A DNA stretch of 32,000 nt. Origin: an uncultured Alphaproteobacteria bacterium. Lineage in GTDB: Bacteria; Pseudomonadota; Alphaproteobacteria; Rs-D84; CACZYB01. The notes beneath the pieces were generated by a model. It was given only the letters and a program-made list of their open reading frames with translations. It had not been told where the DNA came from and made no database searches. The position numbers were made by a program, and so were the translations under genes. This document shows positions 2,057 to 31,202 of this stretch, one piece after another. Positions within the stretch are counted from its first letter, which is position 1, and each line of letters opens with the position of its first letter. Location of the stretch: NCBI GenBank assembly GCA_934246625.1, contig CAKQHZ010000001.1:90001-122000 (forward strand). The letters are read 5' to 3'.

Positions 2057-2057
2057 A

Positions 2058-2696
2058 ATGAGTAAAATTATTTCTTTTGATATTGAAAACAGTTTCGGTG
2101 AAAATTCTATTTGCTTTGGAATTGATGAAGCTGGTCGTGGTTGTTTGGCTGGCCCTGTGGTGGCTGGGTGTGTATGGATAAACAGACATACTTTTCCAAA
2201 GGAACTTTTATCAAAAATAAATGATTCAAAAAAAATATCTGAAAAAAAACGTGAAGAAATTTATGAAGAATTGGTAAACCTTCCACAAGATGTATTTATG
2301 TATGCATGGTGTGATATTGATAACAAAATCATTGATGAAATAAATATTTTACAGGCAACTCTTCTTGCAATGAAAAATGCATATTTCAAACTTCAAGAAA
2401 AACTTTCATTAAACCCTGATATTATTTTGATTGATGGGAATAAGGCTCCTAATATATCTCCATGTAAAACAGTGATAAGTGGTGATGCACTTTCTTACTC
2501 TATTGCTACGGCGTCAATTATTGCAAAGGTTAACAAGGACAGATTGTTAAATAAAATTGGTGAAGAATATCCTCAATATCAATTTTGTAAAAACAAAGGA
2601 TATGGGACAAAGGCACACTTAAATGCACTTGAAGAATTTGGAATTTGTCCTTATCACAGAAAAAGTTATGCACCAATTAAAAAATTTGTTAAATAA
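2058..2696 (+). CDS. rnhB: Ribonuclease HII
   Basis: Motifs GIDEAGRGCLAGPVVAG, DSKKISEKKRE, LIDGN and SIATASIIAKVNKDR. ATG lies 1 nt after the slt stop. Confidence 0.9.
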   Translation: MSKIISFDIENSFGENSICFGIDEAGRGCLAGPVVAGCVWINRHTFPKELLSKINDSKKISEKKREEIYEELVNLPQDVFMYAWCDIDNKIIDEINILQATLLAMKNAYFKLQEKLSLNPDIILIDGNKAPNISPCKTVISGDALSYSIATASIIAKVNKDRLLNKIGEEYPQYQFCKNKGYGTKAHLNALEEFGICPYHRKSYAPIKKFVK

Positions 2697-10171: not shown

Positions 10172-11365
10172 TTACAAATAATCACTTTTCGAACTTATCA
10201 ACATATCGCTGTGAATATAACAACATTCGATTAGTCCAAATCCAAAAAACAATGTTAACATTGCTGTGCCACCATAAGACAAAAGTGGTGATGGAACACC
10301 AACAACTGGTAATAATCCCATAACCATTGCTGTGTTTATAAAGAAATAAACAAAAAAGTTTGCACCCAATCCCAAGGCAAGCAATTTTCCAAATGTATTT
10401 CGGCTTACAAATGCAACCCTATAACATTGCCAAAGTATTGCAATAATAAGTGCAAATAACATAAGACAACCAAACATACCAAATTCTTCTGCAAACATTG
10501 TAAAAATAAAATCCGTTTGTTTTTCAGGCAAAAAGTTCAAATGACTTTGGGTGCCCTGTAAATATCCCTTTCCCCAAAAACCACCTGAACCAAGTGAAAT
10601 TTTGGATTGTGTAATGTGATAACCTGAACCCATAATATCCTTTTCTGGATTCATAAAAATAACAATTCTTTGTTTTTGGTAATCGTGAAGTCCATATTGC
10701 CATATCACAGGAAATGCCACCAATAAAAGCATAAATATTGCACCAAATTTCCACCATTGAACTCCTGCAATAAAAAAGACTATACCTGAAACAAAAACAA
10801 GCATCATTGCAGTTCCCAAATCAGGTTGTAATAATACCAAAAGAACTGGAAGTCCAACTAAACCCAATGGAAATACAAGGTAATAGTTGCTTCGTATTTC
10901 ATTTATACTTAGGGCAGCGAAATATTTTGATAATGCAAGCACCAACGCAATTTTCATAAATTCAGATGGTTGAAAACGTATAAAACCTAAATTAAGCCAA
11001 CGTTGTGCACCCATTCCAACATGACCAACTATATTCACCAAAATCAATGAAACAACGCCTATACCATATATCCAATAAGCATATTTCACCCAAATTTTTA
11101 AATCAAAAACAGAAATAACAAATAAAATAAAAAAGCCAATTATAATTTTTGGAAGTTGTGAAATTGCCCATGGAGTCCATGAACCATAACTTAAAAGACA
11201 GGTTAATTTGTCGGTGCATTCTGCCTTTCCTGCACTATATAAAATAGCAAGCCCAACAGAAGACAAAAGTCCAATTAAAAAAACAAGTTTCCAATTAAGG
11301 CATAGGAATTTTGAAAGTATACTCATACGCCCACTTTTTTTCATACTTAAAGAATAATTTAACAT
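10172..11365 (-). CDS. rodA: Peptidoglycan glycosyltransferase RodA (SEDS family)
   Basis: Polytopic membrane protein. Motifs QPSEFMKIALVL, LQPDLGTA and GSGGFWGKGYLQGTQSHLNFLPEKQTDFIFTMFAEEFG. Lies downstream of mrdA. The true start may be an internal Met. Confidence 0.88.
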   Translation of the reverse strand: MLNYSLSMKKSGRMSILSKFLCLNWKLVFLIGLLSSVGLAILYSAGKAECTDKLTCLLSYGSWTPWAISQLPKIIIGFFILFVISVFDLKIWVKYAYWIYGIGVVSLILVNIVGHVGMGAQRWLNLGFIRFQPSEFMKIALVLALSKYFAALSINEIRSNYYLVFPLGLVGLPVLLVLLQPDLGTAMMLVFVSGIVFFIAGVQWWKFGAIFMLLLVAFPVIWQYGLHDYQKQRIVIFMNPEKDIMGSGYHITQSKISLGSGGFWGKGYLQGTQSHLNFLPEKQTDFIFTMFAEEFGMFGCLMLFALIIAILWQCYRVAFVSRNTFGKLLALGLGANFFVYFFINTAMVMGLLPVVGVPSPLLSYGGTAMLTLFFGFGLIECCYIHSDMLISSKSDYL

Positions 11366-11377
11366 TTTATTTTTCCT

Positions 11378-13204
11378 TTATGAATATAGTTCCAATGTTT
11401 TTATCATTAAATCCCTTGCAATAGGACCAGCGGCACTTGAACCTGACATACCATGTTCTATGACAACAGAAACGGCAAAGCGTGGATTTTTAAATGGGGC
11501 ATATCCAACAAATAACGCATGGTTTCTGTATTTCCATGGTAAATTTTCTTGCTTTATAACACCATGAAGTCGTTCTTCACGAGTAATTCGTTTAACCTGT
11601 GTTGTTCCAGTTTTTCCAGCCATTTGTTTACCATTATAAATAAATGCTGCTGTTTTTCCTGTTCCATTTGGTTTATTGACAACAGAAAACATTCCTCGTT
11701 TTACAAGATTCAAATATCGTGTATCAACATTGATTTGTGGGAAAAATAAATTCTCGTATTCTCCCCTTAAAATTCTTGGTTTCACAGCAAAGCCACCATT
11801 TGCAATACGAGAAGTCATAACGGCAAGTTGTAATGGAGTTACCAAAGTATAGCCTTGACCAATAGAGGCTGTGATAGTATCACCTGTATACCAATTATCA
11901 CTTTTGTAATTGCGTTTCCAACTTACACTTGGAACTTGCCCCTTCTTTTCATTTGCAAGTTCAATACCTGTATAATCACCAAGTCCAAATTTATATGCCA
12001 TTTCTTGGATAGAATCCATATTGATTTTCGTTGCAATATTATAGTAGAAAATATCACAAGAATGTTGCAAAGATTGTTCCAAATCCAACAAACCATGACC
12101 TGAGGTTTTCCAACAATGGTATCGACCATCACCATAATCCATATGACCTGTGCAATTTATTTTTGTGTTAGGAGTAATTTTACCATCTTGAAGTGCTGCC
12201 AATGCAGTAATCATTTTGAATGTGGACCCTGGGGCATATAGTCCTTCGATAGCCTTATTCATAAATGGATGACGAGGATTGGTAATAAGTTTTTTAAAGT
12301 CATCTGCGGAGGCATCTTCTGATAAAAAAATGTTCGGATTATATGTTGGCACAGATATCATCATAAGGATATCTCCGTTGTAAATATCCATAATGATTGC
12401 GCTGGCACTTTCTTCCTTTATTCGTTCAAGGGCATATTCTTGTAATCGTTTATCAATAGTTAAAACTATATTTTGCCCTGGTGTAGCACGTTTTTTCTTA
12501 TCATCAAGAGTTTCAATTACACGGCCTGTGGCATTAACGACTTGCATTGTTTCACCAGCAGAACCGCGAAGTTCCTTATCCATCAACTTTTCAACGCCAG
12601 CCTTTCCCGTTTTAAAATCGGGAAGTTGTAATACAGGGTCAGAATCCTCTTTTAACTCTTGTTCACTTACATCAGAAACATAACCAATTACGTGTGCAGC
12701 AACTTCGTTAAATGGATAAAAACGACGTTTTCCTTCTTCGACATATACACCTGTGAAATCAAGGTTTTTTACTTGCAATTTTGCCATTTCGTCCCAACCA
12801 AGATTATTTTTGATAAAGACTGGGAAAAAAGCCTTTTTCTTTTTTATGTTGTTTAGGACCTTTTCTTTTTCCTTTTCAGATAATGGAATAAGCTCTGAAA
12901 TGCGATTTAAAATTTCTTCCACTGAAAAGCCACGTGCGGTTACTTCCTCTGGTATCATTTGAACGCCATAGCTGTTCTTATTGATTGCCATTTCAACACC
13001 GAATCGGTCCTTTATCAATCCACGAGCAGGAGCAATAAGTTTTATTCGAACACTGTTTTTTTCAGATAGCTTTTTATATTTTGCACCATCGATAATTTGA
13101 AGTTGGTAAAGTCGTCCAGCAAGAATTGAAAATAAAAACAATTCTCCACCTGCGACAAGAAGTGCTCTTCGATTAAAAATTTTGATTAACTCTGCATCTC
13201 TCAT
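11378..13204 (-). CDS. mrdA: Penicillin-binding protein 2 (elongasome transpeptidase)
   Basis: N-terminal anchor. Active-site SxxK APGSTFKMITA, SxD HSCDIFYY, and KTG motif AGKTGTTQV. Sits between mreD and rodA. Confidence 0.9.
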   Translation of the reverse strand: MRDAELIKIFNRRALLVAGGELFLFSILAGRLYQLQIIDGAKYKKLSEKNSVRIKLIAPARGLIKDRFGVEMAINKNSYGVQMIPEEVTARGFSVEEILNRISELIPLSEKEKEKVLNNIKKKKAFFPVFIKNNLGWDEMAKLQVKNLDFTGVYVEEGKRRFYPFNEVAAHVIGYVSDVSEQELKEDSDPVLQLPDFKTGKAGVEKLMDKELRGSAGETMQVVNATGRVIETLDDKKKRATPGQNIVLTIDKRLQEYALERIKEESASAIIMDIYNGDILMMISVPTYNPNIFLSEDASADDFKKLITNPRHPFMNKAIEGLYAPGSTFKMITALAALQDGKITPNTKINCTGHMDYGDGRYHCWKTSGHGLLDLEQSLQHSCDIFYYNIATKINMDSIQEMAYKFGLGDYTGIELANEKKGQVPSVSWKRNYKSDNWYTGDTITASIGQGYTLVTPLQLAVMTSRIANGGFAVKPRILRGEYENLFFPQINVDTRYLNLVKRGMFSVVNKPNGTGKTAAFIYNGKQMAGKTGTTQVKRITREERLHGVIKQENLPWKYRNHALFVGYAPFKNPRFAVSVVIEHGMSGSSAAGPIARDLMIKTLELYS

Positions 13205-14623: not shown

Positions 14624-14691
14624 TAGTTATTTATAGCACCCATAAAAAAAATAGTCATCATTTTTTTTCAATTTTTTAATAAAAATTATAC

Positions 14692-14720
14692 TTTACAAGT
14701 GGCAAAAAAATTTTTATTAT
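14692..14720 (+). promoter_or_regulatory. Candidate sigma70-type promoter for the Bax-like gene
   Basis: TTTACA (14692-14697), 17-nt spacer, TATTAT (14715-14720). The AT-rich background makes chance matches likely. Confidence 0.35.
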
Positions 14721-14737
14721 TCCTTTAAGCTAAAAAA

Positions 14738-15736
14738 ATGATAAAACAAATACTTACTAATTTTAAAAATTTACCTTTGGCAATCAAAAACAGATTATAT
14801 ATTCTTTTTGATAATATTTTTTATAAACTTAAGGTCCTTTTTAATTTTTATTACAGAAAATTTATAAAACGTGAGTATATTCCTGTATATATAGCAATTT
14901 TAATATTCGTAATTATGTCTGTGATTTCTGGAATTATTGTTGTATATGATACAAATTCTCACATAACTTCTTATCGAAAAATGGAACAACTTTTTTTGGA
15001 AAATGATTATGATTTGGAAAAAATCAGAAACAAGGAAAAAGATGTGCCTCGAATTTTTATAAAAACTCTTCCCTCTGATTTCAATATGATAGAATCACCA
15101 AAGGAAAAGAAAGATTTGTTTATTAAGTTCCTTTTACCTCTTATTTTGAAAAAAAATGAAGAAATTATGAAGGACCGTTTGAAACTTCAGGCAATAGAGG
15201 TAAAAATCGAATCAAAAATTCCTCTTCTTGAGGAGGAAGAAAAGTTCCTTAATTTAATAAAGGATACATATAAAACTGAAACTGGCGATATAAAGGATAT
15301 TTTAGTTAAACTTGATGAAGTATCTGTATCAATGGCTTTGGGGCAAGCAATCCAAGAAACTGGCTGGGGAGAATCTCGCTTCCTTATTCAAGGAAATTCT
15401 ATATTCGCAGAATGGACTTGGGGTGGCGATGGTATGCTTCCACGTGCAAGAAAAGATGGACTTATCCACCGAATTAAAACATTTCCAACACTTTATGATT
15501 CCGTTGACAGCTATGCAAACAACCTTAATAGAACACGATATTATGCAGGGTTCAGAAGAATGCGTGCAACCTTAAGGGCTCAAGACAAACCTTTGTATGG
15601 AAGATGGCTTATGAGTTCTATGGTAAGATATTCAACACAAAAAGATGTTTATATTTTAGAAGTTAAAAAAATTATTCGTGATAACAATTTAGATGATTTT
15701 AACACAGTCAAACTTGAACCTGAAGTTAACACTTAA
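14738..15736 (+). CDS. Bax/FlgJ-related N-acetylglucosaminidase-domain protein, membrane anchored
   Basis: N-terminal TM (IPVYIAILIFVIMSVISGIIVVY). Glucosaminidase-like region MALGQAIQETGWGESRFLIQGNSIFAEWTWG. C-terminal YANNLNRTRYYAGFR, as in the E. coli Bax family. Confidence 0.7.
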   Translation: MIKQILTNFKNLPLAIKNRLYILFDNIFYKLKVLFNFYYRKFIKREYIPVYIAILIFVIMSVISGIIVVYDTNSHITSYRKMEQLFLENDYDLEKIRNKEKDVPRIFIKTLPSDFNMIESPKEKKDLFIKFLLPLILKKNEEIMKDRLKLQAIEVKIESKIPLLEEEEKFLNLIKDTYKTETGDIKDILVKLDEVSVSMALGQAIQETGWGESRFLIQGNSIFAEWTWGGDGMLPRARKDGLIHRIKTFPTLYDSVDSYANNLNRTRYYAGFRRMRATLRAQDKPLYGRWLMSSMVRYSTQKDVYILEVKKIIRDNNLDDFNTVKLEPEVNT

Positions 15737-17568: not shown

Positions 17569-17985
17569 ATGAAAAACTTATCTAAAATACTTTGTATTTG
17601 TGCGGGGGCTATCTCGGCAAATCCTATTAACCTTCAGGCTAAAACTTTGCTTGAAACCTTGACTCAATACTGTGTTCCGACGGTTGGCAACTGCGACAAA
17701 AAGGCTACCTACAATACCTCTGGCAACTATTGCGATTGTGCCAACATCAACAAATTCTATAACTCTTCGAATCGTTCTTGCGAGAACTGTATCCTCGGCT
17801 CTTTCGCAACCTCAGACTATAAAACTTGTGAGCCTATTCATTGCCCTGACGGCTATGTTGCGACTTTGATTTCCAAAGGGGCGTGTCCAGATGGCTATAC
17901 TTTGCAACAAATCAATGTGGCTTCGGGTTGTGGCGAGGGTTATGCGTTGAAGAAGTATAATCCGGCGACGAAGAGTTTTAATTAA
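17569..17985 (+). CDS. Secreted cysteine-rich protein with CxxGY repeats (hypothetical)
   Basis: RBS GGGGAAG lies upstream. Sec-type signal peptide (KILCICAGAISA). 10 Cys in the mature part. Repeated CPDGYV / CPDGYT / CGEGYA units. GC-richer codons than neighbouring genes. Confidence 0.7.
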   Translation: MKNLSKILCICAGAISANPINLQAKTLLETLTQYCVPTVGNCDKKATYNTSGNYCDCANINKFYNSSNRSCENCILGSFATSDYKTCEPIHCPDGYVATLISKGACPDGYTLQQINVASGCGEGYALKKYNPATKSFN

Positions 17986-18092: not shown

Positions 18093-18767
18093 ATGAAAAC
18101 CATGAAGAAAAAGAAATTAGCGGTGATAGGGATAGCGGGATTAGCGGGAATGCTTTACTCTGCGACACCTGCCTCCGCTCAAACATTTTATCAATGTATG
18201 CCTTTGAAGTGTAAAGCAGGAGAGTATGTAAGTGAAGGAGGAGAGTGTAAACGTTGCACGGGAGGTTATCGTTGCCCAGGAGATAATAAAAGGTATGCAT
18301 GCACAGGAGAATGGGAATATGCGTTTCCAGGAAGTTCAAGATGTTCAACCTTTGGCCCAAGTGATATTGAAAATATGAAATTGTTGGTTGGAGCTGGAGG
18401 TTGTTCACCGGGTAATTTCGCATCAATATATGTAAGGTTAAAGAATCTAAAAGTAGCAAATAATAGATATTACTATTTCGCTGTTAATATACCTCACTAT
18501 AAAACCCCTGCAATCCCTGAATATGTTATATATACACACTGTAACGCTGTACAAAATGATTATGAAGACCAAATATTATGTAAAGATATACAAAAAGTTA
18601 TAGTAAAAAGTAGAGGTGTTGGCGGTGGTGGCTGTTTCTCTCTTACACAAGGTAGTAAAGAGTTTCCTAATGTAGTGTTTGTTTCTGATAGCGGAAAATG
18701 TATGTCTTATTGGAAAGATGAACATGGAAGACAAAGGTTTGATACGTTGGACAAATGTAAATATTAA
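18093..18767 (+). CDS. Secreted cysteine-rich protein: N-terminal CxxGY-type repeats plus a C-terminal domain of unknown type (hypothetical)
   Basis: RBS GAAGGAG lies 7 nt upstream. Signal peptide ending ASA-QT. 13 Cys in the mature part. Units CKAGEY, CTGGYRC and CTGEWEY. Confidence 0.7.
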   Translation: MKTMKKKKLAVIGIAGLAGMLYSATPASAQTFYQCMPLKCKAGEYVSEGGECKRCTGGYRCPGDNKRYACTGEWEYAFPGSSRCSTFGPSDIENMKLLVGAGGCSPGNFASIYVRLKNLKVANNRYYYFAVNIPHYKTPAIPEYVIYTHCNAVQNDYEDQILCKDIQKVIVKSRGVGGGGCFSLTQGSKEFPNVVFVSDSGKCMSYWKDEHGRQRFDTLDKCKY

Positions 18768-21357: not shown

Positions 21358-21458
21358 AAAAATTCGCTATTTACTCATTATTTTTCTTGCAAAATCATAT
21401 TTTTAAATATAATCTTATTAAGTAGGAAAGAAATTTTATAAAAAAATTGGAGAGTTTA

Positions 21459-22190
21459 ATGAAAATATCTAATTTATCAATAGCAGTTATTGCATTGTCT
21501 GCTTTGTTGTTTTCTGGCAAAACTTATGCAGATTGGGGTGTGGAAGCATACGAGGAAGAAATCGTTGATGACAGCCCTGTTTGGCCTATGCCTTATACTG
21601 ACTCATATACAAATATAGATGAGTTGGCTGAAAATCCTGACTATACAACACAAAATGCAGAAAATGCAAACAAAGTATCTTCAAAAACTCCTGAAACTGG
21701 TTGGACAGGTGGCCCAAGTTATACTCCACCTGCTGGAAATCCTCCTGTGGTTGAAAATATTATTCCGCCAGCAGATTCAAATATGCCTTTGGCAAATAAA
21801 GATTTAATCGTTGATGATGGTGTAAGAGTGCTTTCTGCTTCTATGCCTCCTGGATACCCTCTTGTTGAATATGTTGAAACAAAGGAAGTTGTGATGGAAG
21901 ACGAAGTTAATAAAATTCTTCAAGATTCTATTCGTGATTGGGTTGCAAAGGAAGGTCAAACTCTTCGCGAAGTATTACAACAATGGGCTGATATTGAAGG
22001 TTGGGAACTTGTTTGGAATACAAAACGTGAGTATCCTTTAAAGGCATCTGCAATATTCAGAGGAAGATTTAAAGATGTTTCTTCTGCTATTATTAGAACA
22101 TTTTCAAGAGCTACACCTCAACCTTTGGCTAAATATTACTTAGGAAATAGAGTGTTAGTTGTAAAAACTTTGGAGGAAAATGATGGTTAG
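21459..22190 (+). CDS. pilL: PilL-like periplasmic protein with a TcpQ-type C-terminal domain (type IVb pilus biogenesis)
   Basis: Signal peptide without a lipobox. C-terminal RDWVAKEGQTLREVLQQWADIEGWELVWNTKREYPLKASAIFRGRFKDVSSAIIRTF...LGNRVLVV matches my memory of the TcpQ/PilL domain. It is the first gene of the cluster and overlaps pilN by 11 nt. I prefer the ATG at 21459, with GGAGAG upstream, to the TTG at 21447. Confidence 0.6.
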   Translation: MKISNLSIAVIALSALLFSGKTYADWGVEAYEEEIVDDSPVWPMPYTDSYTNIDELAENPDYTTQNAENANKVSSKTPETGWTGGPSYTPPAGNPPVVENIIPPADSNMPLANKDLIVDDGVRVLSASMPPGYPLVEYVETKEVVMEDEVNKILQDSIRDWVAKEGQTLREVLQQWADIEGWELVWNTKREYPLKASAIFRGRFKDVSSAIIRTFSRATPQPLAKYYLGNRVLVVKTLEENDG

Positions 22191-23700
22191 TAAAAAAGTT
22201 CTTCTCACATCAGTAATGCTTTCTTATGCATTAAGTGGTTGTGTGTATAATCATGAAATGGCAAGTTCTGTGAAAAATAAGGTATCTGTGGATTTTGATG
22301 AAACACAAGATGCACTTGACAGAGCAAAGGTTCCTGGTCGTCCAATATCAAAGGATATTATTTCTGTAAGTGATGATATTTGGCTTGGTGAAACAAGTAT
22401 TGTGGCAGAACATAACGACCCATTGCCAAACAGATTTGAATCTGATGAAGGTATTACTTTGATGACAGATTCAGCAGTTACCTTTGATGAAATAACAAAT
22501 CAAATTTATTATTTGACTGGAATTTCTGTTCAAATTGAAGATAGTATCAAAAAAGAAGATTTAAAGGATTTAAGTATTTCTTATACTGGTCCATTATCTG
22601 GTCTTTTGAATATGCTTGCATTAAAGGCAAACATCAATTGGAGTTATGAAGGTGGAAAGATTATTTTCTATAAATATAAGACAAGAACATTTATTCTTCA
22701 TACACTTGCAACAGAATCAACTTATTCAGCAAACATTTCTTCTGGAAGTGATGGTTCAGCAACTTTGCAAACATCATCTAATTTAAAAGAATGGACTGAA
22801 ATTGGTGATGTTTTAAAAACTATTGTAAAAGATGGTGAAGTTCAACTTTCTCCTTCTACAAATTCTATTACCGTTACTGCTACACCAAAAACATTACAAA
22901 AGGTTGAAGCATACATAAAAGAACAAAACAGAAGATTTGCAAAGCAAGTTGCTGTTACTGTTAGAGTTATGCAAGTATCTCTTTCAAAAAGCAACAATTT
23001 TGGTCTTAACCTTACTGCTTTGTTTAACAATACTTATAATTTAGTAACAAGCACATCAAATGCAAGCTCTGATGGATTGTCATTCGCAATTTTGAAAGAT
23101 TCAAATGATAAAATGGCTGGTTCATCTGCTGCTATAAAGGCATTGTCAGCACAAGGAAAAACTTCTTTGTTGACATCTGCTGTTATTACTGCAAGAAATA
23201 ATCGAGTTGTGCCAATTAACAATATTCAAACTTTCAAGTATGTAAGTTCTATTTCTACTTTGACTGAAAATACAAATTCAACAACTGAAGTAACTCCACA
23301 AGAAGAATCTGTTGGTTTCAGTATGCAAATTATGCCTAACATTCTTGAAAATGGTAAATTGATGTTGTTGTTCAATATGTCATTAAAGGAACTTATCACT
23401 ATTGACACAATGCAAGTTGGTTCAACTGTGGTTCAACTTCCAAAGATTGAACAAAGAAACTTTATGCAAGAACTTGTTATGGAATCAGGTCAAACTGCGG
23501 TTCTTACTGGATTTGAAAAAATCAGAAATGAAAATGGCAGTGAAGGTCTTGGAAAGAGTGAATTTACATACCTTGGTGGTTCACAAAGCACAGAAACAAC
23601 TCGCGATGTATTGGTTGTTATGTTGACACCTCAAGTTATTACTTCACCACTTGAAATTGAAGATAACTCTAATAATGATTGGGGTATGCCATCTTACTAA
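22180..23700 (+). CDS. pilN: Type IVb pilus secretin lipoprotein (R64 PilN family)
   Basis: Lipobox LSGC at residues 19-22. Secretin-like C-terminus: NNRVVPINNIQTFKYV, GFSMQIMPNILENGKLMLLFN and TGFEKIRNENGSEGLGKSEFTYLGG...DVLVVMLTPQVI. Confidence 0.75.
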   Translation: MMVSKKVLLTSVMLSYALSGCVYNHEMASSVKNKVSVDFDETQDALDRAKVPGRPISKDIISVSDDIWLGETSIVAEHNDPLPNRFESDEGITLMTDSAVTFDEITNQIYYLTGISVQIEDSIKKEDLKDLSISYTGPLSGLLNMLALKANINWSYEGGKIIFYKYKTRTFILHTLATESTYSANISSGSDGSATLQTSSNLKEWTEIGDVLKTIVKDGEVQLSPSTNSITVTATPKTLQKVEAYIKEQNRRFAKQVAVTVRVMQVSLSKSNNFGLNLTALFNNTYNLVTSTSNASSDGLSFAILKDSNDKMAGSSAAIKALSAQGKTSLLTSAVITARNNRVVPINNIQTFKYVSSISTLTENTNSTTEVTPQEESVGFSMQIMPNILENGKLMLLFNMSLKELITIDTMQVGSTVVQLPKIEQRNFMQELVMESGQTAVLTGFEKIRNENGSEGLGKSEFTYLGGSQSTETTRDVLVVMLTPQVITSPLEIEDNSNNDWGMPSY

Positions 23701-23723
23701 CATTTATTTAAGAGGGGAAAAAG

Positions 23724-25175
23724 TTGGTAGCAAGCAAAGATATTAAAACTGTTGATATAGCAGGAAAAACCTATGCAGTAGGTCTTTTCTGGCAACCTGT
23801 TCAAAATGAAAAAGAATATTTGAAAGAGGTAAAAGCTGCTGTTCAAACAGTTGTGGTTGGTGCAAACCTTTATTGCTTGAAAAAGGGAACTGCCTCTCAA
23901 TATGGTTTAGGTTTTACAAGCTCTGGTCAAAAAAAGGGTATGCCTGCGGGTGCATCAGGAATTGCGAACGCACTTCGTGATAAATCATCTGCGGTTTGTG
24001 TTTTTAAGGTCAATGAAGGTTGGTGGTTCATCACCATAAGAAATAACCTTATTCTTTCCGAAGAAGATACTATCTATACCGATGAAAATGAAGCAAGAGA
24101 AGCATTTAATTCTATGTTATCAATCCCAGATTGGGGATATAAGATTGCTCCTGCAGAATGGGGAATCGAAGATACAAAAGAAATAAGTGCCGTTGAATTA
24201 TTATCAAAGGGTCAATCTGTTGAATTAAAATCTATTGAAACAAACAATGCAAAAAATATTATTTTAATTCTTTTGATGGTCGGAGCTGGTTGGTATTATT
24301 ACCATTCTGAACAAGTTAAAAAAGCTGAACAAGAAAGAATTGCAAGAGAAAGAAGAATTGCTGCGGCAAAGAAAAAAATGCTACAGGAGGTTGCTCCTCC
24401 ACCTCCTCCACCTGCTCCTTTTGAAAGTTTGACTGATATAAAGGATATGGCAAAGAAATGCACTATTTTAATTGTAAATTCAACTGCAACTGTGCCAGGT
24501 TGGGAATTGGATAAATCAATTTGTATAGAAAAGGCTATGACTTCAAATTGGAAGCGTGGTTATGGAACTGCGGGTTGGATTTTCGAAGCTCAACGATATG
24601 GAAATCTTCCAAAGGAAATGGAATTGTCTGCGGATAATAGCTCTTATAATTCTGTAAGTGGAACTATCAATATTCCATTTATAAAGCATACCAACCAAGC
24701 ACCTGTTATGGAAAAAAATGAAATTCAAAAAAAGTTAAGTGATATTTTTCAATCTTTGAAACTTTCTACATTCAAACTTCATGATGGAAAGACAACTATA
24801 AAGGATAAAAATAATCCTAACTATATAATGGATTATCCATACACAAATTTTTCATTTACTGATGCGGCTTATCGTCTTCCTTTGGATTGGGTGAAATTGC
24901 TTAGCGAAATAAATTCTATTGAATTTACTTCAATAACGTGGGATAATAAGAACAGACGTTGGTCTTATGAGGGAAGAATTTATGAAAATACTCCTGCTTT
25001 GATAAAACAAGCAGAACAAAAGAAATTAGAGGAAGAAAAAAAGTTGAAAGAAGAAGAGGCAAAGAAAAAGCAACAAGAAGCTCAAAATTCTGCAACTTTA
25101 GAAAATTCTGATAAAACAAATACAGAAGGAAAAAAAGAGGGGAATACCGATGGCAATTCTAAACAATCTAAATAA
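23724..25175 (+). CDS. pilO: PilO-like bitopic pilus biogenesis protein (R64 PilO, pilin accessory protein family) with a Pro run and an E/K-rich tail
   Basis: TTG start 6 nt after GAGGGG. N-terminal GKTYAVGLFWQP region. Single TM NIILILLMVGAGWYYY. Position between the secretin gene and the pilP-like gene. The family call is from memory of PilO N-termini. Confidence 0.55.
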   Translation: MVASKDIKTVDIAGKTYAVGLFWQPVQNEKEYLKEVKAAVQTVVVGANLYCLKKGTASQYGLGFTSSGQKKGMPAGASGIANALRDKSSAVCVFKVNEGWWFITIRNNLILSEEDTIYTDENEAREAFNSMLSIPDWGYKIAPAEWGIEDTKEISAVELLSKGQSVELKSIETNNAKNIILILLMVGAGWYYYHSEQVKKAEQERIARERRIAAAKKKMLQEVAPPPPPPAPFESLTDIKDMAKKCTILIVNSTATVPGWELDKSICIEKAMTSNWKRGYGTAGWIFEAQRYGNLPKEMELSADNSSYNSVSGTINIPFIKHTNQAPVMEKNEIQKKLSDIFQSLKLSTFKLHDGKTTIKDKNNPNYIMDYPYTNFSFTDAAYRLPLDWVKLLSEINSIEFTSITWDNKNRRWSYEGRIYENTPALIKQAEQKKLEEEKKLKEEEAKKKQQEAQNSATLENSDKTNTEGKKEGNTDGNSKQSK

Positions 25176-26028
25176 AAAAAATTATATTTTATTTTTATTT
25201 ATGTTAATTTTATCATTTACCTTTAATGTTGCAAATGTAAAGGCTCAAGCAAATGATAATCAAGACGAATATTATGAAGATGACGAAGAATATGATGAGT
25301 CAGAAGAAGATGTTGCCAATGATGAAGATTTAGGTAATGAATACGATGAAGGTTCTGATTTATATGAAAATACAGTGGATATTGATGACCCAAATGGTAT
25401 GTATAAACTTGACGATTTAACTGCTTCTACATTCAAACAAATTACATCTATGGAAAGACAAAATGCCATTATGAAACTTAAAATTGAACAAGGCAAATTG
25501 AAACTTGATTTGGAAAAACAAGAAGCTGAAAAGAAAAAACTTGCTCTTAACCTTGCTGATGAAGAAAAGGCTCGTGAATTAAAACGTGAAGAACAAGAAA
25601 GAAAGATTGAAGAAACTCGTAAAAAGGCTCGTGAATTAGAAGAAAAAGAGCAAGAAGAACGTAAAAAGAAACAACAAGAAGAAGAATTAAACAGAAAAAT
25701 TATGGATAAAATCAATTCAGCAGATTTAACAAATCCTGATGATGTGCAAGCATTAAGTCAACTTTTAAGTTTGGCTGGTGGTAATACTGCAAGTCTTCAA
25801 AATAAAAATGTTAGAAAAGCTGATAATATAGAAGATAAATATGTGATTAAATCCATTGCTGGCGCTGGTGGTAATTTGGTTGCCAATATTGAAAATATTG
25901 AAAAAAAATCTACTTTTAAAGTAAGAAATGGTAGTGTGCTTGATGGCTGGCTTGTTGAAAGTGTAAAAAGCTCAAGTATCTTACTTAAAAAAGGTGGTAT
26001 TGCTAAAGTAATGTATCTTAATCAATAG
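25150..26028 (+). CDS. pilP: PilP-like pilus biogenesis protein with acidic and coiled-coil inserts
   Basis: Signal peptide ending KAQA-ND. C-terminal beta-domain-like YVIKSIAGAGGNLVANIENIEKKSTFKVRNGSVLDGWLVESVKSSSILLKKGG. GAGGGG RBS. Overlaps pilO by 26 nt. Confidence 0.55.
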   Translation: MAILNNLNKKNYILFLFMLILSFTFNVANVKAQANDNQDEYYEDDEEYDESEEDVANDEDLGNEYDEGSDLYENTVDIDDPNGMYKLDDLTASTFKQITSMERQNAIMKLKIEQGKLKLDLEKQEAEKKKLALNLADEEKARELKREEQERKIEETRKKARELEEKEQEERKKKQQEEELNRKIMDKINSADLTNPDDVQALSQLLSLAGGNTASLQNKNVRKADNIEDKYVIKSIAGAGGNLVANIENIEKKSTFKVRNGSVLDGWLVESVKSSSILLKKGGIAKVMYLNQ

Positions 26029-26036
26029 GATTTTAA

Positions 26037-27668
26037 ATGGAGGGGAATAACAACATTGATGTGGAATTAGCATCTCAACCTGCTAATCCGTTCGAGGGTT
26101 TATCTTTAAAAGATGCAACTGCAAAACTTTTTGCCAATGGGAATACATTGGAATCTGGACCAAAGGGAAAATTTCCTGTGGGTGCGGATACACAAAGTTT
26201 GCTTGCTTTGTTTGCTGATGGAACCTTTCTTGTTTCTGGAACACATAAATTTGATGGTAGAGTTTTAAGTTTCCAATCTTTGGTAAGAAAAAAGGGTGGA
26301 AAAATTGCCAGACCTATTTATGTTTCTATGAGTTTATTGAACTCTATTTATTCATCTAATGAAAAGGCGACAAGTGTAAAATCCTCCTCTGATGACAATT
26401 CATCAAACCAAATGCAAAAGGATTTTGTTGATATTGTTTATAGAGCCGCAGATTTAAAAGTTTCTGATATTCACGTTATCGTTTCTGACCATACAACTGT
26501 GTTGTTCAGAGTTTCAGGAAGTATGCAAACTATACTTGAATATGATAAAAACTGGGGTGAGGCATTTGTGCGTTCTGTGTTCGCGTCTGCGGATATTTCT
26601 GATTCAAACTATGCACAAAACGAATTCCAAGCTGGTCAAAAACTGGGTTCAACACCTCTTCGTGGTGAAAGAGATTTGTATTTGCCAGAAAATATACTTT
26701 CTATTCGTTTGCAATTTAATCCTATTGCGTTTGGTTCACGATATTTGGTTATGCGTTTGTTGTATGCAAATTCTTCTGCCTCAAATGACGATAATTTAAA
26801 AGAATTAGGATTTTCAGATTACGAAGATTCAAAACTTTATAAAATGAGAAGTTTTCCAACTGGGCTTTGTATTATTGCTGGTCCAACAGGTTCTGGTAAG
26901 TCAACAACTCTTCAACGTAATATGATTAAGATGCTTAAGGAAAAAAATTATGAACTTAACCTTATTACGGTGGAAGATCCTCCTGAATACCCTATTCCAG
27001 GTGCAAGACAATTACCTGTGACAAATGCGACAACAGAAGAAGAAAAGGAAGAGGCTTTCAACCTTGCTTTGGCGGCGGCACTTCGTTCTGACCCTGATGC
27101 AATGATGGTCGGTGAAATTCGAACACTTTCTTCTGCGGAATTGACATTCAAGGCCGCATTATCAGGACACAATGTGTGGTCAACACTTCACGCAAATTCT
27201 GCCCCTGCTATTGTGAACAGACTTTTGGATATGGGAATTGATGCGTTTAAATTAAAAGATGCAGAATTAATTCGTGGTCTTCTTTCACAAAGACTTTTTA
27301 AAAAACTATGCCCAAAATGTAGAGAAGCAATTAAAAATCACCCTGATCACCCATCTTATGAAAGATTGGAAAAGGCATTGGGCAAATATGGCATTGAACA
27401 AACTTATATAAAGGGAAAAGGTTGTCCATTTTGTGGTGGAAAGGGAATTGTCGGCCGTATTGTTGCATCTGAAATTATTATTCCTGATTCAACTTTCCTT
27501 GAAAAACTAACAAGTGGTAAAAAAAGTGATGCTGTTCATTATTGGACTAATGAACTTAGTGGTAGAACATTAAAAGAAGATGCGATTGAAAAAATGTTAA
27601 AGGGTATCATTTCCATTGATGAAGTAGAAAGATGGTGTGGTATGATTGATACAGACGCCGTTTATTAA
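26037..27668 (+). CDS. pilQ: Type IVb pilus assembly ATPase (GspE/PilB superfamily, R64 PilQ-like)
   Basis: Walker A GPTGSGKST, ITVEDPPEY, Walker B region DPDAMMVGEIR, His box GHNVWSTLHAN, and tetracysteine CPKC...CPFCGGKG. Confidence 0.85.
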   Translation: MEGNNNIDVELASQPANPFEGLSLKDATAKLFANGNTLESGPKGKFPVGADTQSLLALFADGTFLVSGTHKFDGRVLSFQSLVRKKGGKIARPIYVSMSLLNSIYSSNEKATSVKSSSDDNSSNQMQKDFVDIVYRAADLKVSDIHVIVSDHTTVLFRVSGSMQTILEYDKNWGEAFVRSVFASADISDSNYAQNEFQAGQKLGSTPLRGERDLYLPENILSIRLQFNPIAFGSRYLVMRLLYANSSASNDDNLKELGFSDYEDSKLYKMRSFPTGLCIIAGPTGSGKSTTLQRNMIKMLKEKNYELNLITVEDPPEYPIPGARQLPVTNATTEEEKEEAFNLALAAALRSDPDAMMVGEIRTLSSAELTFKAALSGHNVWSTLHANSAPAIVNRLLDMGIDAFKLKDAELIRGLLSQRLFKKLCPKCREAIKNHPDHPSYERLEKALGKYGIEQTYIKGKGCPFCGGKGIVGRIVASEIIIPDSTFLEKLTSGKKSDAVHYWTNELSGRTLKEDAIEKMLKGIISIDEVERWCGMIDTDAVY

Positions 27669-27679
27669 AGGAGAATATT

Positions 27680-28768
27680 ATGGCTATTCAAAAAGTAATT
27701 CCTTCAAATGCAACGATATTAAAATTATCTCAACTTATGGTTTTGTTGAATAATGAAAAAAGGCTTAAAATTTATTATAAATTGGCAGCCCTTCTTCGCA
27801 ATAAATTTACTTTGATGGATGCCTTAGACAGAATTTGGATGATTGAATCAAAGGACGGACAAAGTCCAGAAGAACCTATGGCTATTGCGGTGGCTTGGTG
27901 GTTAAAGGAATTGGAAAAAGGTTTGTCTTTTTCAACTGCTATAAATGGTTGGGCTCCTGTGCGTGAAAAATTGATGCTTTCTGTTGGTGATGTGTCAAAA
28001 CTTGAAAAGGCTTTACTTAATGTTATAAAGGTTTCAGAAGGTTCAAATAAAATTATTAAACCATTGATAAATGCGGTTACTTATCCGTTATTGATGATTG
28101 GACTTTCACTTCTTATTATTGTGGGTGTTGGTGTGTATATGGTTCCTCCACTTATGGAATTTGCAAAAAATGCACAATGGACAGGAAGTGCAAAATCCTT
28201 GGTTGCACTATCTAATTTTGTGAAAGTTTATTGGTGGACCTTCCCGGCTGTGCTATTTGGGATTATTTTAGTTATATATGTATCATTTGCAAACTTTACT
28301 GGACCTTTGCGTGTATCATTTGATAAATGTCCACCTTGGTCATTATACAGAATGTTCACTGGTGTGAGCTGGCTTATGAGTTTGGCTGCATTGGTAGAAT
28401 CTGGAACTCCTATTTCAAAAGCTATGCAATCATTACGTCAAAATGCTTCACCTTATTTAAGGGAACGTATTGATAAGGCATTGATGTTTATGAAAAATGG
28501 TGATAACTTAGGAACTTCACTTAAAAAATCAGGAACTCATTTCCCAGAAGACGAACTTATCGGCGATTTGGAAATTTATTCTGAACTTGATGGATTTGAA
28601 GACTCTTTAAATGCTGTTGCTTCAGATTATCTTAATACCAGTATTGAAAATATTCAAAAGCAAGCGTCTATGTTAAATTCGTTTGCATTGCTACTTGTTT
28701 CAGGTATTATTGCATGGGTTCTTCTTGGTGTGTTTGATATGCAAAACCAAGTTCAAAATGCGATGTAA
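27680..28768 (+). CDS. pilR: Type IVb pilus inner-membrane platform protein (GspF/PilC family, R64 PilR-like)
   Basis: 362 aa with three hydrophobic segments in a GspF-like arrangement. Follows the ATPase gene directly, with an AGGAG RBS. Confidence 0.75.
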   Translation: MAIQKVIPSNATILKLSQLMVLLNNEKRLKIYYKLAALLRNKFTLMDALDRIWMIESKDGQSPEEPMAIAVAWWLKELEKGLSFSTAINGWAPVREKLMLSVGDVSKLEKALLNVIKVSEGSNKIIKPLINAVTYPLLMIGLSLLIIVGVGVYMVPPLMEFAKNAQWTGSAKSLVALSNFVKVYWWTFPAVLFGIILVIYVSFANFTGPLRVSFDKCPPWSLYRMFTGVSWLMSLAALVESGTPISKAMQSLRQNASPYLRERIDKALMFMKNGDNLGTSLKKSGTHFPEDELIGDLEIYSELDGFEDSLNAVASDYLNTSIENIQKQASMLNSFALLLVSGIIAWVLLGVFDMQNQVQNAM

Positions 28769-28849: not shown

Positions 28850-29134
28850 ATGACAAGAAGTGATATTATAAAAAAAATATATCAACACAAATCAAACCTT
28901 TTGATTCGTGATATTGAAAAAATTGTTGATATATTAACAAATACTATATCTTCATCTTTGGCTGAAGGTCATAGAATTGAACTTCGTGGGTTTGGAGTAT
29001 TTGCTCCTAAAAAGCTCGCATCAAAAGTTGCATCAAACCCAAAGGGTGGTGCAAAAATAAATCTTCCTGAAAGAGTTTCTGTTAAATTTAAGGCAGGAAA
29101 ACTTCTTTCAAGCAAAATTAACGATAAAATTTAA
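28850..29134 (+). CDS. ihfB: HU/IHF-family DNA-binding protein, most like integration host factor beta
   Basis: 94 aa. IELRGFGVF...NPKGGAKINLPERVSVKFKAGKLL. The basic residues before NP are weaker than the canonical GRNP. Confidence 0.7.
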   Translation: MTRSDIIKKIYQHKSNLLIRDIEKIVDILTNTISSSLAEGHRIELRGFGVFAPKKLASKVASNPKGGAKINLPERVSVKFKAGKLLSSKINDKI

Positions 29135-29148
29135 GCATTATACAAATT

Positions 29149-29373
29149 ATGATTAAAACTACATTAAATTGGATAGCTTTTTTTATCTTATTTTTTATAA
29201 TAGTATTATTTTCTATTGAAAATGATAATTTGATGATATTAAGTTTATTTCCGTTCAAAGTTGGTATTGAAATGCCCGTGTATCTTTATACTATTACACT
29301 TGCTTTCATTTCATTTTTTACTGGAATAATCTTTTCAAAATTATTTTACAAATCTAAAAAAACTTATAAATAA
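29149..29373 (+). CDS. LapA-domain (DUF1049-like) small inner-membrane protein
   Basis: 74 aa with two TM segments. It lies immediately after ihfB, as in many alphaproteobacteria. Confidence 0.5.
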   Translation: MIKTTLNWIAFFILFFIIVLFSIENDNLMILSLFPFKVGIEMPVYLYTITLAFISFFTGIIFSKLFYKSKKTYK

Positions 29374-29384
29374 AGGAGTTTAAA

Positions 29385-30242
29385 GTGGTAAATTGGATTA
29401 AAGATATTATAAGACCTAAAATTAAAACTATGTTTTCAAAAATAAAAGATGTGCCTGAAAATATGTGGGTGCCATGTCCTAAATGTTCAACTCTTATGTA
29501 TAGAAAGGATTTACATAATCACCTTAACGTTTGCCCAAAATGTGATTATCATTTATTCCTTCAAGTAAATGACAGATTTGACAGTCTTTTTGATGATGCA
29601 AAGTATCAAATAATTGATGCTCCAAAGGTAAAAGAAGATCCTATTAACTTTAAAGATTTAAAGAAATATAAGGATAGATTGGAAACCTATAGAGCAAAAA
29701 CAAAAGCTCAAGATGCGATTTCTGTTGCATTTGGTAAAATTGGTAAAATTGATACTGTTGTATGTGCTTTTAATTTTGAATTTATGGGCGGAAGTATGGG
29801 AACTTTCGTTGGTGAATATATTTTAAAGGGTGCAGAATATGCAGTAAAAAAGAATGCCGCATTTATTGTTATCCCTGCTTCTGGTGGTGCAAGAATGCAA
29901 GAAAGTATGTTATCATTGATGCAAATGGCAAGAACTACACTTGCAGTTAACAAAGTCCGTGATGCTGGACTTCCTTATATCGTTGTATTTGCAAACCCAA
30001 CAATGGGTGGTGTATCTGCTTCTTTTGCAATGCTTGGCGATATTCATATTGCTGAAAAAGGTGCATTGATTGGTTTTGCTGGAAAGCGTGTTATCGAACA
30101 AACAATTAAACAAAAATTACCTCCTGAATTCCAAACTGCTGAATATTTAAAGGATCAAGGTATGGTTGATATTGTTGTTCACAGAAAAGATTTGAAAAAT
30201 ACTTTGGTAAATATCTTAAAAATGCTTATGCACAATAAATAA
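29385..30242 (+). CDS. accD: Acetyl-CoA carboxylase carboxyltransferase beta subunit
   Basis: GTG start 7 nt after AAGGAG. Zn ribbon CPKCSTLMYRKDL...CPKCDYH. Motifs FMGGSMG and SGGARMQES. Confidence 0.92.
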   Translation: MVNWIKDIIRPKIKTMFSKIKDVPENMWVPCPKCSTLMYRKDLHNHLNVCPKCDYHLFLQVNDRFDSLFDDAKYQIIDAPKVKEDPINFKDLKKYKDRLETYRAKTKAQDAISVAFGKIGKIDTVVCAFNFEFMGGSMGTFVGEYILKGAEYAVKKNAAFIVIPASGGARMQESMLSLMQMARTTLAVNKVRDAGLPYIVVFANPTMGGVSASFAMLGDIHIAEKGALIGFAGKRVIEQTIKQKLPPEFQTAEYLKDQGMVDIVVHRKDLKNTLVNILKMLMHNK

Positions 30243-30263
30243 TTTGAAAATAAGGAATTTAAA

Positions 30264-31202
30264 ATGATTTATTTAGATTTTGAAAAAAATATTAAAGAAT
30301 TAGATGTCAAAATTCAAGAACTTGAAGAAGCAAAGGAAACTGCTTCTCGTAAATCAAAACTTGAAAAATTGATTGCTAAACGTGAAGAAGAATTAAAGAA
30401 AATTTATTCAAATCTTTCTTCTTGGGACAGAGTGCAAGTTGCAAGACATGCAAATCGTCCACATGCTATTGACTACATCAATACTATGATTACAGATTTT
30501 GTTGAACTTTGTGGTGATAGAGCATTCGCAAATGATGATGCAATTATCGGTGGTATGGGATACCTTGACGATATGCCTGTTATGGTTATTGCCCAAGAAA
30601 AAGGTAGTGATACAGAATCTCGTATTAAACACAATTTCGGTATGCCAAAACCAGAAGGTTATAGAAAAGCAATAAGACTTATGGACCTTGCAAACAGATT
30701 TGGTCTTCCTGTAATTTTCTTGGTTGATACTGCTGGTGCTTTCCCAGGGGCCGATGCCGAAGCAAGAGGTCAAGCCGAAGCTATTGCTCGTTCAATACAA
30801 AAATGTTTGGATATGGAAGTTCCAACCGTTTGTGTTGTAATTGGGGAAGGTGGTTCTGGTGGTGCAATTGCTATTGCCGTTGCAAATACTATCTTTATGC
30901 TTGAAAATTCAGTTTATTCTGTGATTTCACCAGAAGGTTGTGCTTCTATTCTTTGGAGAAGTCAAGAACACAAACAAGAAGCAACAAAGGCATTGAAAAT
31001 GACTGCTGATGACCTTCTTGAACTTGGCATTATTGATAATATTATCAAGGAACCTGTTGGTGGTGCACATAGAAACAAAGAAGAAGCTATTGCAAATGTT
31101 AAATCTGCTTTGAAAGATGAACTTAAAAAACTTTCTAAATTAAGCAAAAAACAAGTAAAAGAAAAAAGACTTCAAAAATTTGAAAATATGACAAGAATAT
31201 AA
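30264..31202 (+). CDS. accA: Acetyl-CoA carboxylase carboxyltransferase alpha subunit
   Basis: Motifs RHANRPHAIDY, NFGMPKPEGYRKA, DTAGAFPGADAEARGQAEAIA and IGEGGSGGAIAI. Confidence 0.92.
   Translation: MIYLDFEKNIKELDVKIQELEEAKETASRKSKLEKLIAKREEELKKIYSNLSSWDRVQVARHANRPHAIDYINTMITDFVELCGDRAFANDDAIIGGMGYLDDMPVMVIAQEKGSDTESRIKHNFGMPKPEGYRKAIRLMDLANRFGLPVIFLVDTAGAFPGADAEARGQAEAIARSIQKCLDMEVPTVCVVIGEGGSGGAIAIAVANTIFMLENSVYSVISPEGCASILWRSQEHKQEATKALKMTADDLLELGIIDNIIKEPVGGAHRNKEEAIANVKSALKDELKKLSKLSKKQVKEKRLQKFENMTRI

Follow-up and report, generated by a model that had tools for sequence, protein, structure and literature searches.

A type IVb pilus assembly core resident on the chromosome of an uncultured alphaproteobacterium

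We analyzed a 32,000-nucleotide stretch of DNA from an uncultured Alphaproteobacteria bacterium (hereafter the window; GenBank assembly GCA_934246625.1, contig CAKQHZ010000001.1, positions 90,001 to 122,000 of the forward strand, 30% G+C), which carries a block of six co-directional pil genes on its plus strand. The first gene encodes a PilL-like periplasmic protein with a C-terminal TcpQ domain (PF10671), a secretin partner, at 21447/21459-22190; the ATG at 21459 is probably its translation start. It is followed by genes for a PilN/BfpB-type outer-membrane lipoprotein secretin (22180-23700), a PilO/BfpC-type protein (23724-25175), a PilP-like protein (25150-26028), a PilQ/BfpD-type pilus assembly ATPase with a zinc-binding tetracysteine motif (26037-27668), and a PilR/BfpE/TcpE-type inner-membrane platform protein (27680-28768). 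Adjacent genes overlap by 11 nt (pilL/pilN) and 26 nt (pilO/pilP), and the remaining gaps are 23, 8, and 11 nt. An earlier note on this DNA, made from the letters and a list of open reading frames (ORFs), had described the same arrangement, and our ORF calls agree with it exactly. A scan for promoters and terminators gave counts near shuffle expectation in this AT-rich sequence.

We assigned the proteins with profile hidden Markov models (HMMs) and compared them with solved structures by sequence searches against all PDB sequences. For relatives, we drew on species-representative genomes in GTDB, 308 of which encode a relative of the secretin; the sources and labels given below are those of the best 80 of these 308, and individual loci are designated by L and a number. 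PilL has a signal peptide and lacks a lipobox. Its TcpQ domain (PF10671, 2.4e-18, 66 bits) spans residues 163-240, it matched chain R of 9u5s, a lipoprotein bound to the BfpB secretin (8.4e-13), and its gene lies upstream of pilN in nearly all of the 80 related loci. PilN matched the Secretin domain (PF00263, 3e-12), and its best secretin model was TIGR02520, the PilN-family type IVb (T4b) secretin (239 bits, cut-off 288 bits), followed at a distance by MshL (89 bits), GspD (52 bits), and PilQ (36 bits). Its sole PDB match was BfpB (9u5s_A, 2.9e-51), and the cysteine of its LSGC lipobox, Cys21, is invariant among 16 homologues.

PilO matched PAP_PilO (PF06864, 2.9e-14, 53 bits) over residues 18-406, which is almost the entire protein. 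Its N-terminal domain is cytoplasmic and is followed by a hydrophobic segment around residue 180, a domain in the periplasm, and a tail rich in K and E. It matched the N-domain of BfpC (3vhj, 4.4e-4) as well as annotated PilO2 genes on Bosea, Thalassospira, and E. coli plasmids. In PilP, a signal or anchor segment is combined with an acidic stretch and a long coiled-coil region rich in K/E, and a domain of about 65 amino acids at the C-terminus is conserved. The window protein itself matched the pilP_fam model TIGR03021 at E = 0.0023. The same model was matched by 10 of 14 positional orthologues, at best with 4.9e-6 and always through the C-terminal domain of about 65 amino acids. These matches within its orthologue family make the fourth ORF credible as PilP, and the gene holds the PilP/BfpU position in all comparators. 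A direct BLAST search found no match to plasmid PilPs in the T4b comparators, and an AlphaFold2 model of the C-terminal 100 amino acids built without an alignment was too poor for use (mean predicted local distance difference test score 47.8). PilP measures 292 amino acids in the window, 466-545 in the clades of L090, L092, and L098, and about 150-230 in plasmid systems. The low-complexity inserts of PilO and PilP, rich in K/E and in PilP also in D/E, correspond to imperfect AAG/GAA-rich DNA repeats at 25000-25700, covering the 3' end of pilO and the middle of pilP.

PilQ matched T2SSE (PF00437, 2.7e-65, 221 bits) and, among solved structures, BfpD (8dze, 2.3e-91, 310 bits), with PilF/GspE at about 165 bits. 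It carries a Walker A motif at residue 282, an Asp box at 309, a Walker B motif at 356, a His box at 376, and the cysteine motif CPKC...CPFC at 425-466. Among family models it scored 38 bits for the TadA type versus 227 bits for the GspE class, and PilT-type models covered the NTPase core only. PilR matched T2SSF (PF00482, 3.7e-21) in two stretches, has three predicted transmembrane helices, and weakly matched the N-domain of TcpE (4hhx, 0.0096). The protein assignments of the earlier note were thus borne out by HMMs and motifs for the TcpQ protein, the lipoprotein secretin, PilO, the ATPase with its nucleotide-binding boxes and tetracysteine motif, and the platform protein; for PilP, the match of the window protein is weak and its family provides the support.

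Together, the six genes are a T4b pilus assembly core in L-N-O-P-Q-R order, as the earlier note had proposed; HMM searches, matches to structures of the bundle-forming pilus (BFP), and annotated plasmid operons concur on this point. The TXSScan definition of the T4b pilus lists pilB, pilC, pilQ, pilA, and pilD as mandatory, requires at least four of them, and allows them to be spread over several loci (PMC6668835). The window holds a PilB-class ATPase, a platform protein, and a PilN/BfpB secretin, together with the T4b-specific accessories TcpQ, PilO2, and PilP, the last below threshold. The earlier note had asked whether HMMs might instead place the proteins in type II secretion system (T2SS), type IVa (T4a), or tight adherence (Tad) families, and the matches pointed to T4b. 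A T2SS was rejected, with 52 bits for the GspD model against a cut-off of 351 bits and no GspC, GspL, GspM, or pseudopilin family among the window ORFs. A T4a or Tad pilus was likewise rejected, with 36 bits for the PilQ model TIGR02515 and 38 bits for the TadA type.

The subtype given in the earlier note, "R64/PAPI-1-style", did not hold up. For this comparison we used annotated T4b operons from Bosea, Thalassospira, and E. coli plasmids; the R64 type was represented by the operon of an IncK2/Z plasmid, and PAPI-1 itself was not among the compared systems. The R64/IncI thin pilus (pilI-V) shares with the window the nomenclature, the order L-N-O-P-Q-R, a PilN-family lipoprotein secretin, PilO2, and PilP. 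Gene order nevertheless does not single out R64, because the BFP order G-B-C-U-D-E equals L-N-O-P-Q-R, and CFA/III also has this six-gene order. The IncK operon was the most distant comparator for PilL, PilN, PilO, and PilR, four of the five detectable proteins, and the second most distant for PilQ (142 bits). R64-type loci carry pilM between pilL and pilN and continue with pilS, T, U, and V and a shufflon recombinase, and they belong to a conjugative plasmid. At the window locus, pilL and pilN overlap without pilM, ihfB follows pilR, no pilM, S, T, U, or V is present, and no homologue of PilM, PilV, or the PilT transglycosylase was found.

Judged by sequence scores, the R64-type thin pilus is farther from all five recognizable proteins than are T4b systems of the BFP/CFA-III type and of alphaproteobacterial plasmids. 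The BFP of enteropathogenic E. coli (bfpG-B-C-U-D-E) has the same core order, running from a TcpQ-like partner through the secretin, BfpC/PilO, a small protein in the PilP position, and the ATPase to the platform, and it supplies the nearest solved structures for the window proteins, namely BfpD, BfpB, the BfpB-bound lipoprotein, and BfpC. BFP/CFA-III-like plasmid systems of E. coli scored 250-269 bits for the ATPase and 182-188 bits for the platform. Identity to the BFP and CFA/III proteins is, however, just 25-35%, and the window PilP is about twice as long as its counterpart there, with acidic and coiled-coil inserts. The BFP and CFA/III operons are plasmid-borne virulence loci, whereas the window block is chromosomal. 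They also encode a pilin, minor pilins, a prepilin peptidase, and a transglycosylase, and BFP additionally a retraction ATPase, none of which is linked to the block in the window. The best non-metagenomic matches came from plasmid pBSY19_1 of Bosea sp. RAC05, with the top score for PilL, PilO, PilQ (38% identity, 303 bits), and PilR (221 bits), and from a Thalassospira xiamenensis plasmid, with the top score for PilN (200 bits). Both have an order identical to that in the window (TcpQ-PilN-PilO2-hypothetical protein-ATPase-platform). Unlike the window block, these loci lie on plasmids beside replication and type IV secretion system (T4SS) genes, and their operons carry a pilin, a PilV adhesin, a prepilin peptidase, and a second ATPase.

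We then considered the surroundings of the block. Profile searches corroborated the flanks named in the earlier note, with rpsD, queH, and a porin gene upstream and, downstream of pilR, a housekeeping anchor (28850-31202, plus strand) of ihfB, a LapA-like 74-amino-acid membrane protein, accD, and accA, identified with NCBIfam and Pfam models. The other window ORFs are all housekeeping or envelope genes: slt, rnhB, an addA-like helicase gene, glgP, mnmE, rodA, pbp2, mreDC, dciA, and dsbA, in addition to rpsD, queH, porin, ihfB, the LapA-like gene, accD, and accA. The 74-amino-acid protein between ihfB and accD (29149-29373, plus strand) has two transmembrane segments, is conserved in relatives, and is a housekeeping component outside the pilus system; its orthologue in L094 weakly matched LapA_dom.

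In agreement with the earlier note, the 32 kb carry no hallmarks of a mobile element. A tRNA and Rfam search of the window returned nothing, no integrase, relaxase, or T4SS families occurred among the scanned window ORFs, and direct repeats of the att type around the pil block were at chance level only. Sequence beyond the window was read from two loci, L100 (found through rnhB) for 10 kb upstream and L087 (found through PilR) for about 7 kb downstream; both are free of pilus-related genes, and neither the window nor these 7-10 kb flanks contain a relaxase, a T4SS, or a coupling protein. The earlier note had allowed for an integrative and conjugative element (ICE) or plasmid backbone outside the window; none is present in the L100 and L087 flanks, and the remainder of the genome lies beyond those 7-10 kb. 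The host-like composition claimed for the block was also upheld, its codon usage and its G+C content at third codon positions (GC3) lying within the housekeeping spread. GC3 is 0.210 for the pil genes versus 0.199 for the other window genes, and codon usage of the pil genes correlates with the rest at 0.969, compared with a minimum of 0.949 and a mean of 0.983 for splits of the housekeeping genes into halves. In a relative with 54% G+C, the pil block has 55.6% G+C. An integrative element or genomic island was therefore rejected, with no integrase, tRNA, or att repeats and with composition and phylogeny congruent with the host.

Relatives of the block are widespread among uncultured bacteria. 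PilN homologues in metagenomes range from 99% down to about 33% identity, and the window organism was found again in several public assemblies, where a protein 100% identical to its PilR lies on contigs of up to 524 kb. All of the 80 best GTDB relatives are uncultured metagenome-assembled genomes (MAGs). They were recovered from rumen, from the guts of horses, chickens, rodents, and termites, and in some cases from sediment, and they carry the labels Alphaproteobacteria, "Rickettsiales bacterium", or Candidatus Enterousia; the reduced-genome order Rs-D84 is among them. All loci of the window lineage (66-91% PilN identity) run from queH/porin through pilLNOPQR to ihfB-lapA-accD-accA, and the linkage pil-ihfB-accD-accA is retained in L029 (52% PilN identity), L094 (about 40%), and L004 (38%). 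Overall, the order pil-ihfB-(lapA)-accD-accA occurs in at least 12 genomes (loci L001-L019, L029, L004, and L094), at PilN identities as low as 38-42%, and the synteny comparison suggested by the earlier note thus revealed a conserved ihfB-accD-accA linkage across relatives.

The pil genes have also diverged in step with their neighbors. Across 12 genomes, pairwise distances of PilN, PilQ, and PilR followed those of AccA and AccD with r = 0.964 (Mantel test with 2000 permutations, 0/2000). In comparisons of the window genes with three relatives, the ratio of nonsynonymous to synonymous substitutions (dN/dS) was 0.07-0.21 for all six genes, with 0.08-0.09 for PilQ and 0.085-0.11 for accA/accD, and PilQ was more conserved than AccA. 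Synteny, co-divergence, composition, and dN/dS taken together demonstrate that the pil block is an old acquisition that has since been inherited vertically under purifying selection. Because it is so inherited and selected, it is a resident machine and not a conjugation accessory, in line with what the earlier note had suspected. We consider it very probable that the block is all of these at once, an intact and functional T4b assembly core that is fixed in the chromosome of an AT-rich alphaproteobacterial lineage from the gut.

By homology to the BFP, the toxin-coregulated pilus (TCP), and R64 machines, PilN would form the outer-membrane channel, aided by its TcpQ-domain partner PilL, and PilO and PilP would bridge the secretin to the inner-membrane platform PilR and to the ATPase PilQ in the cytoplasm. 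PilQ would hydrolyze ATP so that pilins leave the inner membrane and are assembled into a filament, which would pass out through PilN. Judging by the relatives, the gene for the pilin would lie elsewhere in the genome, as presumably would that for a prepilin peptidase.

The filament subunit was sought with a loose class III motif scan and a PilS-family profile, both of which recovered the pilins of control plasmids. Neither found a class III major pilin in the window, L087, L100, or the window-lineage loci. Profile and single-sequence searches for an A24 prepilin peptidase across about 1.8 Mb of loci matched only the control plasmids. In sister clades, a PilS-like gene encoding 179-186 amino acids directly follows pilR in L090 (11127-11672), L092 (11127-11672), L098 (11115-11654), L101, L102, and L105. 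These proteins align with each other, and their profile matched the annotated major pilins of the E. coli, Thalassospira, and IncK systems at 7e-16 to 1.7e-3. Most have a plain N-terminal anchor without a Gly cleavage site or Glu at +5, and a pair of C-terminal cysteines is conserved. A scan of metagenomes with the PilS-like alignment yielded five loci, none of them from the window lineage. L004 encodes a further member of this family with an ordinary N-terminal anchor, a PilS-domain protein 8 kb upstream (1342-2091, minus strand; PF08805, 34 bits versus a cut-off of 22 bits), for which a homologue search returned two near-identical proteins only. In L104, whose accA is 69% identical to that of the window, three PilS paralogues lie 2-6 kb downstream of accA beside a PilT-like ATPase fragment, and one of them (3318-3926) has a canonical prepilin site, with cleavage between G and RSMVEMLGVLAIIG. 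Going by these sequence relationships, T4b PilS-family pilins belong to the pilus system of this clade, so that the pilin of the window organism would be encoded elsewhere in its genome or have been lost.

For the completed machine, we propose that the filament would serve contact with, or attachment to, host mucosa or partner cells; this is the least certain step of the mechanism. Characterized T4b pili (TCP, BFP, CFA/III, longus, the R64 thin pilus, and S. Typhi PilS) mediate adhesion or aggregation. Genomes of Rs-D84 are mostly smaller than 1 Mb and lack amino-acid, nucleotide, and lipid biosynthesis as well as respiration, and dependence on partner cells has been proposed for the order, for which no pili were reported (PMC12306168). 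Two MAGs of that study are among the loci analyzed here (L065 and L069), and a reduced genome of the window organism is plausible from these relatives. An attachment role would fit the partner-dependent lifestyle proposed for such reduced-genome lineages. Type IV pili of Saccharibacteria are predicted to facilitate symbiotic interactions (PMC11623550). Saccharibacteria and other ultra-small episymbionts of the candidate phyla radiation (CPR) and extracellular Rickettsiales such as Deianiraea offer a functional analogy only, that of a pilus kept in a reduced, partner-dependent genome and proposed or shown to mediate host binding (PMC11623550, PMC10847448). CPR organisms are unrelated to the window lineage, and the likeness drawn here is one of lifestyle. 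An attachment or contact filament is, in our assessment, the most likely role, with about an even chance of being correct. For the whole explanation, comprising both the machine and its attachment role, our compromise estimate is that it is somewhat more probable than that.

Several observations weigh against this explanation. The secretin and PilP score under the curated cut-offs of their NCBIfam models. Searches of the window, L100, L087, and the window-lineage loci yielded no genes for a pilin, a prepilin peptidase, a minor pilin, or a retraction ATPase. Many PilS-like proteins of sister clades lack the class III signal (Gly, then Glu at +5), which makes their polymerization doubtful. Moreover, in Candidatus Enterousia-type loci (L024-L084) only pilL and pilN stay together, and the machine may have been modified or partly lost in parts of the clade. 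In one of these loci, L048 (9016-19444), pilL-pilN is followed by unknown proteins of 268 and 1037 amino acids and then by plsY and dprA. In one sister clade, a protein of 503-538 amino acids of unknown family always precedes pilL (L090 1609-3120, L092 1508-3028, L098 1629-3245), forming an eight-gene block; an equivalent is absent from the window, where the porin gene precedes pilL instead.

The pilus could alternatively capture extracellular DNA for ComEC and DprA and so supply nucleotides or genes to a cell that cannot synthesize nucleotides itself, as has been proposed for CPR bacteria. In 44 Enterousia-type loci of the order Rs-D84, as well as in L022 and L004 (just upstream), pilN has dprA as a neighbor at a distance of 1-7 kb, and in L023 comEC is located about 0.8 kb downstream of pilR with fabG between them. 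However, plsY-dprA is a widely conserved housekeeping neighborhood in alphaproteobacterial genomes, and the linkage between pil and dprA may for this reason be frozen synteny. No dprA or comEC gene lies close to the pil block in the window or in loci of its lineage, a retraction ATPase is absent at the pil locus, and we know of no T4b pilus demonstrated to take up DNA. The lack of nucleotide biosynthesis in Rs-D84 genomes (PMC12306168) would suit such a function, but Denise et al. attributed DNA uptake to Com, T4a, and archaeal type IV pili (PMC6668835). We regard a DNA-uptake pilus as possible but unlikely.

A further explanation pairs the pilus with a chromosomal P-type (rvh-like) T4SS, the pilus holding a target cell while the T4SS delivers effectors or DNA, as a domesticated form of the thin-pilus/conjugation pairing. 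Plasmid T4b loci adjoin T4SS genes, and in more distant relatives virD4 lies immediately upstream of pilL in L020 (5477-7597) and L023 (6612-9215), the latter also with a VirB2-like gene. In L098/L099 (11748-14463), VirB4 (CagE_TrbE_VirB) lies just downstream of the pilS-like gene, after a 96-amino-acid ORF that we read as VirB3-like and that has no Pfam match. Housekeeping genes surround the T4SS genes that abut pil in L020, L023, and L098; in L020, for instance, these include the dcw cluster. This adjacency hints at a common origin or a functional link of the two machines, and a T4SS link may hold for the clade as a whole, as far as these distant relatives indicate. It was nevertheless seen in three distant lineages only, the window and the flanks read contain no T4SS genes, and to our knowledge P-type T4SSs are not partners of T4b pili. 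We consider this pairing unlikely, somewhat more so than DNA uptake.

The machine might also act as a T2SS-like exporter, in which a short pseudopilus pushes soluble proteins through PilN, as TCP does with TcpF and CFA/III with CofJ. The cargo would be cysteine-rich proteins encoded nearby. Two such proteins with signal peptides and no Pfam family are encoded 2.7-3.9 kb upstream of the block on the plus strand (17569-17985, 138 amino acids, and 18093-18767, 224 amino acids), and accessories of long filaments, such as minor pilins or an adhesin, are not linked to the locus. In L094, four paralogous secreted cysteine-rich proteins of about 160 amino acids flank the pil block (2421-2909, 11201-11698, 14684-15157, and 18260-18760, minus strand) and end in an identical C-terminal DPNLIEY, a heptapeptide that may be a sorting or secretion tag. 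However, the secretin and ATPase are of the T4b and not the T2SS type, as the GspD score and the absence of GspC, GspL, GspM, and pseudopilins indicate, and the cysteine-rich genes are not conserved at the locus in the close relatives L011 and L013. One of the two, at 17569-17985, has an aberrant GC3 of 0.47 versus about 0.20 for every other window gene, which indicates a recent acquisition or else a frame that does not hold a real gene. An exporter of this kind seems more doubtful still.

Finally, the block could be the relic of a thin-pilus operon from an integrated plasmid or ICE, no longer functional and decaying after the loss of its pilin, peptidase, and transfer genes. In R64-type and other T4b operons, pilR is followed by genes for a pilin, a peptidase, a transglycosylase, and an adhesin, none of which is present at the locus, and T4b loci are overwhelmingly plasmid-borne (3117 matching records in a plasmid collection, 2513 of them conjugative). 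Such a relic is nevertheless essentially excluded by six ORFs intact in every relative examined, by dN/dS in the housekeeping range with PilQ more conserved than AccA, by composition fully ameliorated in both 30%-GC and 54%-GC hosts, and by the failure to find an integrase, att repeats, or a tRNA.

Most knowledge of T4b pili comes from virulence and mating devices that Gammaproteobacteria carry on plasmids or islands. According to Denise et al. (2019, PMC6668835), they had been described only in Gammaproteobacteria, and they took a basal position in the tree of bacterial type IV filaments. The present locus adds a T4b core as a vertically inherited chromosomal trait, selected like housekeeping genes, in widespread uncultured gut Alphaproteobacteria. 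More speculatively, the T4b machine might be an ancient organelle that defines a large radiation of uncultured Alphaproteobacteria from guts and sediments, Rs-D84 among them. It would derive from a conjugative module domesticated together with an rvh-like T4SS and would now be the main means by which these metabolically dependent cells attach to partner cells or take up DNA and nutrients from them, with some members, possibly including the window organism, polymerizing leaderless PilS proteins without a prepilin peptidase; we hold this broader picture to be improbable as a whole. The machine is not of a new kind, because every component is homologous to a known T4b part. What makes it interesting is that it is inherited like housekeeping genes throughout a large radiation of uncultured Alphaproteobacteria, together with the question of what its filament subunit is. 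A deep-branching, vertically inherited T4b lineage would be useful for reconstructing the origin of T4b pili, and the pil locus provides a testable candidate for host or partner contact in these organisms.

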